IMG/VR virus record: IMGVR_UViG_640753020_000006
Source: a virus
Reading direction: 5' to 3' (one strand)
DNA length: 64,000 nucleotides
Both the position numbers and the translations under genes were made by a program. Of the stretch, positions 4,276 through 17,453 are shown in pieces. Position 1 is the first letter of the stretch; the number at the start of each line of letters is the position of its first letter. Under the pieces are notes generated by a model. That model was not told where the DNA came from and searched no databases. It worked only from the letters and a program-made list of their open reading frames with translations.

Positions 4276-4320
4276 TTTACATTCCTCCATAATCTTTATA
4301 ATTTAAAAAGGAGCCTTTTA

Positions 4321-4343
4321 GGAGCGGTCAGATAGGGATTATT
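4321..4343 (+). repeat. Left junction (attL-like), host-site half
   Basis: GGAGCGGTCAGATAGGGATTA-TT; 17/21 match to the reverse complement of 17418-17438. Confidence 0.8.
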
Positions 4344-4358
4344 AATTCCTGAAAAATT

Positions 4359-4393
4359 CGGCATAGTCGTTGATATTCGGCTATGCCGTTTTT
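4359..4393. terminator. Terminator downstream of the recombinase
   Basis: CGGCATAGTCG-ttgatatt-CGGCTATGCCG flanked by A and T runs. Confidence 0.75.
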
Positions 4394-4397
4394 TCGT

Positions 4398-6050
4398 TTA
4401 GTTTGGTAAGTCGATAGCGCCAATGCAGTTATAGAAAATTTGAATCCGCTGGGTTCTGCGGCCATCTACTTTTTCAGCCTTAAATACAATAATTTTGTCA
4501 ATGAACTCTCGGATAATCTCTGCATCCAATTCTGTAATTTCTGTGTACTTTTTAACTAGTGCTAAAAAGCGGTCGGTATTGAGGGACTGTTCATTTGCTG
4601 TATCAATGGTATGTTTTAATTCAGTTATCTTTTCTTCCAGAGCCTTCTGCTCGGCTTCATATTCAGCTGACATCTTGTAAAAACGCTCTTCGGGAATTTT
4701 GCCCATCACATTATCCTCATATAGCTTTCGAATGATTTTGTCTATGTCAGCAATGCGAGTCTGTGCTTGTTCATACTCCTTTTGACTTTGGCGGAGTTCT
4801 TTGGCAAGTTCCTTTTCTGAATTATTCATAACTATACGGATGAATTCCTGTTCATGGTCTTTGGCAAAGGAGGTTACACGTCTTAAGTCTTCTAGCAAAA
4901 GCTGTTCCACTACAACATTACGTATCTGATGTGAACTGCACATACCCTTTTTCTTGCGGTAAGTAGCACAAACGAAATATTCCTTATCGTGTGTCCATCC
5001 CTTGCCTCTAACCTGATACAGCTTTGCCCCACAGTCGGCACAAAACATCATGCCAGAAAGCATTCCCATTTCACCTAATCGTGATGGTCTTCGCTTGCCA
5101 TCTCTGATTTTCTGCACTGTTTCCCAAGTGCCCTCATCGATAATTGCTTCATGGGTATTTTTGAAAACCAGCCATTCTTCTGGATTGTTCATTATCTTGA
5201 CTTTGCTCTTGTAGGACTTTTTAGAAGTCTTGAAATTCACTGTGTGACCTAGATATTCCATTTTAGCCAGAATATCTGCTACGGTACGAGCCGACCAAGC
5301 ATATGGGTTTTCAGGCGGTCTTGCTGGAGTGTTAATACCCATTTTGCGAAGATGCACCGTAGGTGTATCAATGCATCGCTTTTCAAGTTGCTTTGCTATC
5401 TGCGTAGGTCCAAAGCCAGCCATGCACAGTCGGAAAATATCTCTGACCACCTCGGCGGCTTTCTCATCTATAATCCAGTGCAACTTATCCTCAGGGTCTT
5501 TAATATAACCGTAAGGCGGATTGGTGCAGAGTGGCTTACCGGACTGTCCCTTGGATTTGAACACAGCACGGATTTTCTTGCTAGTATCCTTAGCGTACCA
5601 TTCATTAATAATGTTAAGAAACGGTGTAAAGTCACTGTCTGCTTGGTTTGCACTATCAATACCGTTGTTAATAGCAATGAATCGTACATCTGCTTCAGGA
5701 AACATAATCTCGGTATAATATCCTACTTTAAGGTAATCCCTGCCGAATCGGGACATATCCTTGATGATAATCGTTCCAATTCTACCGGACTCTACATCTG
5801 CAATCATGCGGTTAAAGTCTGGTCTATCAAAAGTTGTACCGCTGACCCCATCATCCACATAAAATTCGATGTTACGAAAACCGTTGTCCTCAGCATATTT
5901 TTTTAGAATTGCCTTCTGGTTTACTATACTGTTGCTGTCTCCTGCAAGCTCATCATCACGGGAAAGCCTGCAGTAAAGAGCAGTAATTTTCGCTTCTTCA
6001 AATGCTAATGTTGATTTACGTATAGTGCTAAATGTTGACTGTCTATTCAT
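4398..6050 (-). CDS. Large serine recombinase, TnpX-like with DUF4368-like C-terminus
   Basis: [10 protein letters not shown] catalytic motif, [12 protein letters not shown] zinc ribbon, [15 protein letters not shown]. Confidence 0.95.
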
Positions 6051-6107
6051 TTTTCTCCTCCATTTCCGACAGTCTTCAAGCGGTTTAGCACTATGTATAT
6101 TACCGTA

Positions 6108-6311
6108 CTACCTTGAAGAAGTCGAGTTGATTTCCGTGGGTTTATTTGAACTATTTGATAACTTTGAAAGGCTTTTTGCGTTGACCGTAATCAGTCGTTT
6201 CAGCTTGGAATATGCACTTTCCTTTGCTGAATCACTTACTCGTGATTCCACCACATAGACCGTACCTCCGATATCGGATTTGGTTGTGCGGCTGTTACTT
6301 TGATTCTCCAT
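6108..6311 (-). CDS. Transposon-encoded TnpW-like small protein
   Basis: IGGTVYVVES..S.SAKE.AY.KLKRLI pattern directly upstream of the recombinase; RBS AGGAGG. Confidence 0.7.
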   Translation of the reverse strand: MENQSNSRTTKSDIGGTVYVVESRVSDSAKESAYSKLKRLITVNAKSLSKLSNSSNKPTEINSTSSR

Positions 6312-15687: not shown

Positions 15688-15709
15688 TTTAATTTAGGGG
15701 GATGAAAGG

Positions 15710-17329
15710 TTGAGGTTAGAAGCAATTGTAATTAAACATTATCGATCGATAGAAAGAGTGGCTCTTAAACTTCCTCCAAATAAGCCACTTGTCCTATTCG
15801 GACCGAATAACGCAGGAAAATCTAATATATTATCAGCTATAAATAGAATACTTGGTGAAAGATATCCAACTTATATTGAGATGTTGGAAAGTGATTACTT
15901 TAAACGTAATCAAAATGAATATCCTACCGCACATATTACCGCTAAATTTACTAAGCCTTTATATTATGATAATAAAGGAAATGGATATGACGTTATAGCT
16001 GTAAGTTATGGTTATAATGGACAGGCTAATAATAATCTTTTGCACGATGGCAGTGGAAATAAAATATATCCCACAAACGAACAGCGTTCTGCCTGTCAGT
16101 CCTATTTGATTGATGCTGAAAGAAATATCCAGAGTGCTTTTAATTATAGTAGTAGCTACTCTCTGTTAAGTAAGTTTTCAAAGAAGATACATGAAGCCTT
16201 AAGTACAGAGCATAAAGATGAATTATCACAAGCCTTTAATCAAATTACAGCATCCTTTGAACAGACTGATGAATTCTCTGGTTTTTTTAATCGATTTTCT
16301 GAAGCTCTAAAGGGGGCGGTAAAAGGATTTGTTCATTCATTGGCTGTGGATTTTTCAGCCTATGATCCAAACAATTATGCAAAGTCACTTCGGATCTATG
16401 CAAAAGAGGGAGATAATATTCGTGGATTTGAAGAATTCGGCACTGGTGAACAGCAAGTCTTATTAATGGCTTTTGTTAAAGCATATATGGAAGTATTCAC
16501 TGGTGAAAACTTTGTGTTGATTATTGAAGAACCAGAAGCCCATCTCCATCCCTTAGCTCAAAGATGGTTAAAGGAATATGTTGTAGATATGTGTTCATGT
16601 GGCATTCAAGTAATCATTTCAACACATTCCGCAGAATTCATAGATGCAGAATACTTAGATGGACTTGTACGAGTACATAAAGAAGGTGGAGTTACTAAAG
16701 CAATACAACTATCCGCTCAACAACTTTGCGATTTTTGTATAGGGTCAGGTGTTCCAGAGAATTGTGTGTCACCAGAAAACATAATTGATTTTTACTCAAC
16801 AAAACTATTTTCAGACCAGTTAAAAGGAATGTTTGCAGAAACAATCATATTAGTGGAGGGAGCTACTGAATATTTTGCTCTGCCAGTATATTTAAAACGT
16901 AGTGGGTATTCTTTAGCTGAACATGGAACCGAAATTGTTAATTGTCGTGGTAAGGAGGCAATCCCTTTGTACTGGAGGTTATTTAAAGCATACGGTTACA
17001 ATTGTTATGCCATATTTGATTGTGACAGGAATGCATCAAAGACTAGGGATGTGTTTAATGGCATCTTTTGCGAAGAAGAATGGGATACAGAAACTGAAAA
17101 TTGTATTGTTAGAGCCGATTATGCATACTTCGGTAAAGACTTTGAATCCTATTTGCGTACAGCAATAGATGACTATACTTCAATGGAACAAACCATTTCT
17201 GAAAAATATCATATTTCTTCAAAACCAGGAAAAGCTAAAGCTATAGCACAACATATAGAGGAAATTCCTCATTTTATTAAGGATATTGCAGATAAACTAT
17301 TAATTATAGAACTTTTGGGACAAAATTAG
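15710..17329 (+). CDS. OLD-family ABC-ATPase/TOPRIM nuclease (stand-alone)
   Basis: GPNNAGKS, IEEPEAHLHP, STHS, ILVEGATE, D.D TOPRIM motif; no partner helicase follows. Confidence 0.9.
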   Translation: MRLEAIVIKHYRSIERVALKLPPNKPLVLFGPNNAGKSNILSAINRILGERYPTYIEMLESDYFKRNQNEYPTAHITAKFTKPLYYDNKGNGYDVIAVSYGYNGQANNNLLHDGSGNKIYPTNEQRSACQSYLIDAERNIQSAFNYSSSYSLLSKFSKKIHEALSTEHKDELSQAFNQITASFEQTDEFSGFFNRFSEALKGAVKGFVHSLAVDFSAYDPNNYAKSLRIYAKEGDNIRGFEEFGTGEQQVLLMAFVKAYMEVFTGENFVLIIEEPEAHLHPLAQRWLKEYVVDMCSCGIQVIISTHSAEFIDAEYLDGLVRVHKEGGVTKAIQLSAQQLCDFCIGSGVPENCVSPENIIDFYSTKLFSDQLKGMFAETIILVEGATEYFALPVYLKRSGYSLAEHGTEIVNCRGKEAIPLYWRLFKAYGYNCYAIFDCDRNASKTRDVFNGIFCEEEWDTETENCIVRADYAYFGKDFESYLRTAIDDYTSMEQTISEKYHISSKPGKAKAIAQHIEEIPHFIKDIADKLLIIELLGQN

Positions 17330-17337
17330 CTGAATGT

Positions 17338-17383
17338 AAAAAAAGACCACACAGGAGTAAAAAACTCTTATGTGGTCTTTTTT
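17338..17383 (+). terminator. Terminator after the OLD gene
   Basis: AAAAAAAGACCAC...GTGGTCTTTTTT. Confidence 0.8.
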
Positions 17384-17415
17384 GCCCCGCTTGAAGCTGT
17401 TCATTTAAGTTTTTC

Positions 17416-17438
17416 TTCAATCCCTAAGTGAACGCTCC
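17416..17438 (+). repeat. Right junction (attR-like), host-site half
   Basis: TT-CAATCCCTAAGTGAACGCTCC, inverted partner of 4321-4341. Confidence 0.8.
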
Positions 17439-17453
17439 ATTAAGCTCCCTTTT

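Follow-up and report, generated by a model that had tools for sequence, protein, structure and literature searches.

A 13-kb integrative element in a prophage and its probable insertion at a TT dinucleotide in a terminator loop

A prophage in the viral record IMGVR_UViG_640753020_000006 is interrupted by about 13 kb of DNA that encodes a serine recombinase. Where exactly did this DNA enter, and what did its recombinase recognize there? We analyzed one stretch of that record, 64,000 nucleotides long (the window; position 1 is its first letter). The sequence-only reading of this DNA had joined two arms from near the ends of the insert into a 44-bp palindrome, and it concluded that the element had split this long palindrome exactly at its center. 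Our analysis leads to a different answer. We consider it highly probable (about 0.88) that a 13,122-bp integrative element was inserted into the prophage by its own TnpX/TndX-type recombinase, at a TT dinucleotide in the loop of a terminator.

Ends of the element and its empty site

The inverted repeat that drew attention to this locus is genuine. Re-reading the sequence confirmed both its letters and the count: 4321-4341 and the reverse complement of 17418-17438 are identical at 17/21 positions, with a TT next to each arm on its inner side (4342-4343 and 17416-17417). The match is not due to chance, because it is kept at both ends of the element in ~30 copies from other genomes.

We searched for uninterrupted homologues of the locus with its flanks. 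In 60 related genomes, this produced mostly short spurious matches, and the useful yield was a second copy in the window's own genome. There, both flanks recur and abut at G000:C1:1932291-1932293, in a sister prophage locus (L031). The left flank of L031 is 99.75% identical through window position 4320, and the right flank resumes at window position 17440. Its empty junction (L031:5270-5310) reads GGAGCCTT-TT-AAGCTCC, between an A-run and a T-run. At the occupied site, the two junctions have only TTA in common (4318-4320 and 17440-17442). Two IMG/VR phage contigs, L152 and L153, emerged from an exact-pattern scan of viral contigs with this junction likewise intact. L152, from a metagenome, shows another identity profile and is therefore an independent case; L153 appears to be the same prophage as L031. 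The GenBank phage collection, searched with each flank, contained no close phage and no empty site. The 44-bp palindrome was not present in any of the three uninterrupted homologues (L031, L152, and L153). The proposal that it was the phage attachment site (attB) is therefore refuted, by a different junction found three times.

The arms move with the element. Relatives of its 550-amino-acid (aa) recombinase at 94-99% identity occur in ~30 species-representative genomes, mainly of Bacillota. Carriers include Clostridium aquiflavi, C. aromativorans, C. tepidum, C. prolinivorans, and C. lapidicellarium; Brevibacillus, Aneurinibacillus, Ureibacillus, Neobacillus, Robertmurraya, Haloimpatiens, and Traorella; and many metagenome-assembled genomes (MAGs). 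The left terminus (4320-4341, plus strand), GGAGCGGTCAGATAGGGATT, is kept in all ~30, and the flanks turn unrelated exactly at the equivalent of window 4320/4321. At the other end, which finishes with the right terminus (17418-17439, plus strand), the last ~64 bp are kept in 27/30 genomes and end in ...AAGTGAACGCTTCT, followed by TT and then by unrelated DNA. The sequence just inside the arms differs among copies (ATTATTAATT versus ATTTATAATT), with no conserved TT boundary there. The arms are the outermost 21-22 bp of the inserted DNA and not flanking target DNA. Furthermore, ~30 recombinases at 94-99% identity that each have different flanks indicate multi-site integration.

The corrected insert is 4320-17439 plus one TT, for a total of 13,122 bp. 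The boundaries proposed earlier (4344/17417) sit 21-23 bp too far inward on each side, and annotations that use 4342-17417 for the element need an equivalent outward shift at both ends.

TT was found at both junctions in 30/30 left/right pairs, and it is also present in the empty sites and once in the end-to-end joint described below. In the window, comparison of the junctions places the two copies at 4318-4319 (attL) and 17440-17441 (attR). For a T+N core, the base that precedes GGAGCGG would have to be the same as the third base beyond the right terminus, and this was so in only 8/30 pairs.

When the right terminus, TT, and the left terminus are joined in that order, they form two 22-bp arms with dyad symmetry about TT. 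The arms are the two halves of the element's own attachment site (attP) around a TT core. This right-end/TT/left-end joint had one exact match, in IMGVR_UViG_3300036438_000062 (L151), which has 54 bp of the right end, TT, the left end, and then backbone sequence over 5.8 kb (96% identity). When folded, the joint forms a palindrome (-22.9 kcal/mol). The circle junction that had been proposed from the earlier boundaries was absent from all fetched loci searched, and the joint of the corrected model was found exactly instead. The suggestion that symmetric arms around TT are a serine recombinase site was correct in principle, but the arms form attP, in the opposite order, and not attB. Because the arms are inverted repeats, either order yields a palindrome, and this was the source of the misassignment. 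Attachment sites derived from the earlier boundaries are the wrong pair; the right pair is the end-to-end joint and a small terminator site.

The arms are otherwise 95-100% conserved, and their core-adjacent positions are their most variable part. In the left terminus, 21 copies have A and 9 have T as the core-adjacent base. The right terminus of the window (17436-17439 region) ends GCTCCA, and that of 28 other copies ends GCTTCT. A second copy of the conserved right end is present in five genomes (G072, G073, G075, G079, and G083), which points to a second element or a solitary end.

The recombinase was also found at 98-99% identity in MAGs labeled Bdellovibrionota, Caldisericales, Candidatus Nanogingivalis, Burkholderiales, Atribacteria, Thermotogae, and Synergistaceae (L041-L069). 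These occurrences reflect either binning contamination or a host range far beyond Bacillota. In Traorella massiliensis (L069/L144), the ends whose flanks rebuild a perfect terminator hairpin are ~55 kb apart by contig coordinates, and only the recombinase region matches the window backbone. Here the same recombinase may have moved a much larger element.

The target site and other explanations

The true target is the TT at 4318-4319, which lies in the loop of a short predicted terminator after the phage lysis genes. The left arm of attB (4296-4317) is phage DNA made up of an A-run and the left half stem GGAGC (4310-4314), and it is identical in the three uninterrupted homologues. In all three, 4296-4319 is contiguous with the right arm (17442-17462), which is phage DNA with GCTCC (17444-17448) and a T-run. 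The target hairpin is GGAGC/GCTCC, formed by 4310-4320 and 17443-17448 in the empty site, with the TT in its 3-nucleotide (nt) loop. Read in the direction of the flanking genes, the empty site forms a hairpin of 12 pairs (-15.7 kcal/mol; z, -3.5), and 0/200 shuffled sequences folded as well. The hairpin is followed by UUUUU, and a pattern scan also flagged the site as a terminator. It begins a few bases past the stop codon (17454-17456) of an 83-aa phage gene (17454-17705, minus strand; phrog_419, E 1e-36), which itself follows the endolysin gene. Directly downstream is an 82-aa phage gene from the open reading frame (ORF) list (4042-4290, minus strand), the first gene of the cluster on the side of a Tad1-like gene, and Pfam, PADLOC, and PHROG searches gave no family match for it. 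A GC hairpin and a U-run just past a stop codon make this site a predicted intrinsic (Rho-independent) terminator. Folding of the two junctions found that the hairpin is lost at both after insertion.

Thus, a palindrome had indeed been split at its center, but the empty sites show a different and shorter one than proposed, the phage terminator. Likewise, the idea that the recombinase targets a phage terminator was right in its outcome, with the core TT in the loop, and wrong about the structure, which is the smaller GGAGC/GCTCC hairpin and not the long one.

We extended the analysis to other genomes by pairing left and right flanks, which rebuilt 28 targets. A first hairpin test, at least 4 contiguous pairs in the minimum free energy fold, was dropped because 20% of controls passed it and bulged stems failed it. 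We replaced it with a sequence-only score of symmetric complementarity about TT, with 5000 random TT sites from the same host DNA as controls. The median symmetry was 10/16 in the rebuilt targets versus 5/16 in the controls, and 19/28 targets were at or above the 95th percentile of the controls. When all 31 possible pairings were scored, the Mann-Whitney p value was 9e-14. Because each pair combines flanks found in separate searches, their complementarity supports both the pairing and the register of the core. The targets also share a composition, with A at -15 to -11 in 20-26/28, C at -5 to -2 in 14-20/28, G at +2 to +6 in 11-18/28, and T at +11 to +14 in 22-28/28. More distant relatives (64-82% recombinase identity) have different termini, and their junctions are TTT, TTA, or AAA. 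An A-run plus a GC block was found in the flank of 30/37 of them, versus 16.5% of controls.

The mechanism that we propose is ordinary serine-recombinase integration. The recombinase (4398-6050) would pair the joint of the circular form (attP) with the phage attB, which would be the same TT in the loop of the short terminator behind the lysis cassette and the 83-aa gene. Staggered cleavage at TT and strand exchange would leave one TT at each junction, and the same exchange would turn the attP arms into the imperfect inverted repeats at either extremity of the insert. This chemistry is what we infer from the ends, the joint, and the empty sites. The lineage has no single fixed site. Instead, it picks TT dinucleotides that are centered in terminator-like dyads, with an A-run and a C-rich half stem on the left of the TT and a G-rich half stem and a T-run on its right. 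Such sites are intergenic and present in every Bacillota genome, which fits with recombinases at 94-99% identity in many orders. Two-way terminators just inside the ends of the element would functionally replace the split one.

Several findings weigh against this reading. The L151 contig is not closed, so its joint could come from an excised circle or from a tandem pair, and a single scan of metagenome contigs for the same joint gave 0 matches. Two of the last 4 bases in the window's right terminus are not those of the common form, for which we have no explanation. The left arm of the window's own attB is G-rich, versus a C-rich consensus. About 6-8/28 rebuilt targets fail to form a clear hairpin, perhaps because ends were mispaired in two-copy genomes or because the exceptions are real. 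Finally, attP x attB recombination is assigned to the 550-aa recombinase from its sequence, and the activity of this copy is predicted.

The same element and site could be used by a recombinase that reads structure, an extruded cruciform or single-strand hairpin, and not the sequence of a duplex dyad. The target stems are very diverse in sequence with pairing kept, as structure recognition would predict. However, the composition of the targets is strand specific (C-rich on the left, G-rich on the right, TT between, and the A-run and T-run at fixed distances), it resembles the pyrimidine/purine pattern beside the attP core, and several of the targets fold poorly as hairpins. Binding of duplex half-sites by dimers, as in known large serine recombinases, also counts against structure recognition. 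We regard it as unlikely and favor recognition of the duplex.

The remaining explanations concern the nature of the ends, and we find each of them very improbable. Terminal inverted repeats of 21 bp and TTA at 4318-4320 and 17440-17442 look like a classical DDE-type transposon with a 3-bp target duplication. However, no element ORF matched a DDE transposase family in Pfam, and the sole recombinase detected is the TnpX-like serine enzyme. Only TT is common to the 30 pairs, and the poor agreement at the third base makes the A of the window coincidental. A right-to-left joint with a single TT is, moreover, a signature of serine recombinases.

A nested insertion, in which a tiny element consisting of the 44-mer first entered the terminator loop and the 13-kb element then entered its center, is just as hard to credit. 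The empty sites alone would be compatible with two successive events, but the same two-step history would be needed in ~30 independent genomes with identical arm-to-interior junctions. In L151, it is the outer ends of the arms that are joined, whereas a 44-mer host site would predict the reverse. There was also no second copy of an arm and no free 44-mer in the window's own genome, and the viral contigs and fetched loci held no free 44-mer either.

The idea that an element at 4344-17415 split a phage 44-mer at its central TT (4342-4343/17416-17417) has in its favor the 17/21 match of the arms and the TT adjoining each on its inner side, but it has next to no chance of being right, given the three uninterrupted homologues, the ~30 unrelated flanks into which the arms move with the element, the variable interior beside them, and the failure to find either a matching circle junction or the joined 44-mer itself (0 in IMG/VR viral contigs and 0 in ~150 fetched loci with up to 3 mismatches allowed).

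Genes, cargo, and phage neighborhood

We return to the 13,122-bp integrative element moved by its own recombinase. The recombinase gene (4398-6050, minus strand) encodes a large serine recombinase of the TnpX/TndX type, with Pfam matches to Resolvase (PF00239, E 2.7e-23), Recombinase (PF07508, E 8e-20), Zn_ribbon_recom (PF13408, E 3.8e-14), and, at its C terminus, DUF4368 (PF14287, E 4e-26, residues 482-547). The ORF is intact, its RLSRDD serine motif aligns with TnpX, and its catalytic domain matches the TnpX structure 2mhc (E 2.5e-43). Next to it, on the same strand, are genes for a TnpW-like small protein (6108-6350; PF14202, E 2.8e-13), a lone HK97-fold major capsid homologue of 299 aa (6387-7286; Pfam Phage_capsid, E 4e-78; phrog_10 major head protein), and a primase-helicase (7560-9869; Pfam NrS-1 pol HBD, D5_N, and Pox_D5; phrog_1829 DNA primase, E 2.6e-177). 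Together with the left terminus, these genes lie in a conserved backbone (4320-10374) that has ~95% nucleotide identity in 25-30 other genomes and is also present in L151. A scan of nine element ORFs against Pfam found no relaxase family, and no search for oriT was made. We found no family with a recombinase, TnpW, a lone capsid protein, and a primase described in the literature.

The rest of the element is a variable cargo bay (10375-17372, plus strand), annotated with Pfam and PADLOC. Here it carries a helix-turn-helix gene (10501-10749), type III Mod (10733-12712) and Res (12709-15687), and an OLD-family nuclease (15710-17329). The other sampled copies carry mostly type I restriction-modification (R-M) systems, ~6 carry type III R-M, and one carries PbeA. 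In that last copy, from Thermincola (L058), the PbeA homologue (E 5e-225; L058:295-2442, minus strand) is beside a 958-aa protein without a PADLOC match (L058:2387-5263, minus strand), which is possibly a partner of PbeA or a further defense gene.

Predicted two-way terminator hairpins lie just inside both ends. The left one (4356-4394; -17.7 and -23.5 kcal/mol, z about -6.6) has U-runs both ways and is also the terminator of the recombinase gene. The right one (17345-17385; -24.7 and -23.8 kcal/mol, z below -5) has an equivalent in every other copy examined, in which the stem sequence differs and the pairing is kept. Late-operon transcripts that formerly ended at the split terminator are thus expected to end ~60-90 nt further on. 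Because the tad1 cluster was already behind a terminator before insertion and the element adds two-way terminators, the net transcriptional effect on the tad1-side genes is probably small. The sequence-only reading had expected altered transcription into the tad1 cluster. This expectation is not supported, since the terminator pre-existed and we infer that the element brings its own terminators near both ends. We also considered the left terminus as a -35 box for the 82-aa gene; a pattern scan of the minus strand from 4290 to 4400 found no promoter-like site, and the idea was rejected.

Through this insertion, a type III R-M system and an OLD nuclease came to lie inside a prophage, beside the phage's own Tad1-like counter-defense gene. 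This Tad1-like gene (3551-3925; PF24729) is precisely missing from the three near-identical sister loci (window 3531-3925 compared with L031:4885-4935, L152, and L153), in which the start codon of the following gene (the homologue of 3111-3530) is fused directly to the region upstream of tad1. Because of this fusion, tad1 behaves as a clean one-gene cassette. Between the Tad1-like and 82-aa genes, window 3920-4040 contains a 16-pair hairpin (4036-3997). This stretch recurs at 81-98% identity on the second contig of the window's own genome (C2:31550-31669) and in G005 and G016 of the genus, sometimes in both orientations; a small repeat is one possibility, and a shared regulatory module is another. 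On the other side of the element, DNA relatives of the 83-aa gene (66-76% identity) occur in SPO1-like Bacillus phages and in Streptococcus, Fusobacterium, and Clostridium phages. The 83-aa protein weakly matches a PHROG annotated as nucleotide pyrophosphohydrolase, and it has no Pfam or PADLOC match.

Comparison with known systems

With an integrase, a primase-helicase, and a single capsid-fold gene, the element resembles phage satellites (cos-type Staphylococcus aureus pathogenicity islands such as SaPIbov5, and P4-like satellites). It has no terminase, portal, or tail genes, and defense cargo is common in satellites too. The resemblance is one of gene content, and the near-identical copies across several Bacillota orders are unusual for particle-borne transfer.

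Other mobile elements use abundant intergenic dyads as harmless landing places. These include class C bacterial group II introns, which insert after intrinsic terminators, and insertion sequences in the palindromes known as REP/BIME (repetitive extragenic palindromes/bacterial interspersed mosaic elements). They differ from this element in mechanism, which is retrohoming or DDE/DEDD transposition, and in position, because they land after the terminator or in REP loops. Our literature search, which did not cover most subscription journals, found no paper linking serine recombinases to terminator targets.

The clostridial elements Tn4451/Tn4453 (TnpX) and Tn5397 (TndX) are close in their recombination machinery. 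Their recombinases have the domains found here, DUF4368 among them, and the recombinase here is adjoined by a TnpW homologue. The core of Tn4451/Tn5397 is GA, and the element here has TT. They too have many target sites and a 2-bp repeat that is present at both ends and once in the joint and the empty site; this logic has been stated for TnpX-type elements (PMC3158075). Several differences set them apart. No relaxase/Mob, TnpV, or TnpY was detected here by Pfam among the element ORFs. The backbone here is a lone capsid homologue and a primase-helicase, with the recombinase gene at the end and pointing outward, and the cargo is anti-phage defense and not, as theirs, antibiotic resistance.

What might the target rule mean beyond this locus? 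Terminator loops are intergenic, abundant, and present in any host, and they would be a generic safe harbor for one lineage. Such targeting would help to account for how a small backbone, which shuttles R-M and other defense genes, has spread so widely. We lean somewhat toward a broader proposal, in which the whole DUF4368 clade uses intrinsic-terminator loops as a universal landing site and the two-way terminators of the elements replace the split one. As part of that same proposal, which we hold only slightly more probable than its opposite, the clade-wide site would have TT or AA as its core, a GC stem on either side, and an A-run before and a T-run after the stems. If true, this rule explains how a 6-kb backbone with swappable restriction and defense cargo can be found at ~95% identity across Bacillota orders, even in prophages. 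The target rule is the part of this analysis that is worth following up. Multi-targeting recombinases of the DUF4368 clade are already used as tools (PMC10083194 and PMC13137831), and a terminator-shaped dyad as the natural target would help to predict where such tools land.

Durrant et al. (2022; PMC10083194) described the DUF4368 clade, including TndX-like enzymes, as multi-targeting (Cp36, Enc9, and Pc01). For one enzyme, 21 attBs share a TT core when aligned, and T and A are enriched at their ends; the authors took this pattern as relaxed specificity. Their main text never uses the words terminator, palindrome, hairpin, symmetry, or inverted repeat, and their attB logo probably shows the terminator rule without naming it. 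The element described here shares with that clade the DUF4368 domain, near-identical recombinases at many unrelated sites, and a very similar attB profile. It differs in that the motif here resolves into a terminator-like dyad with the core in its loop.

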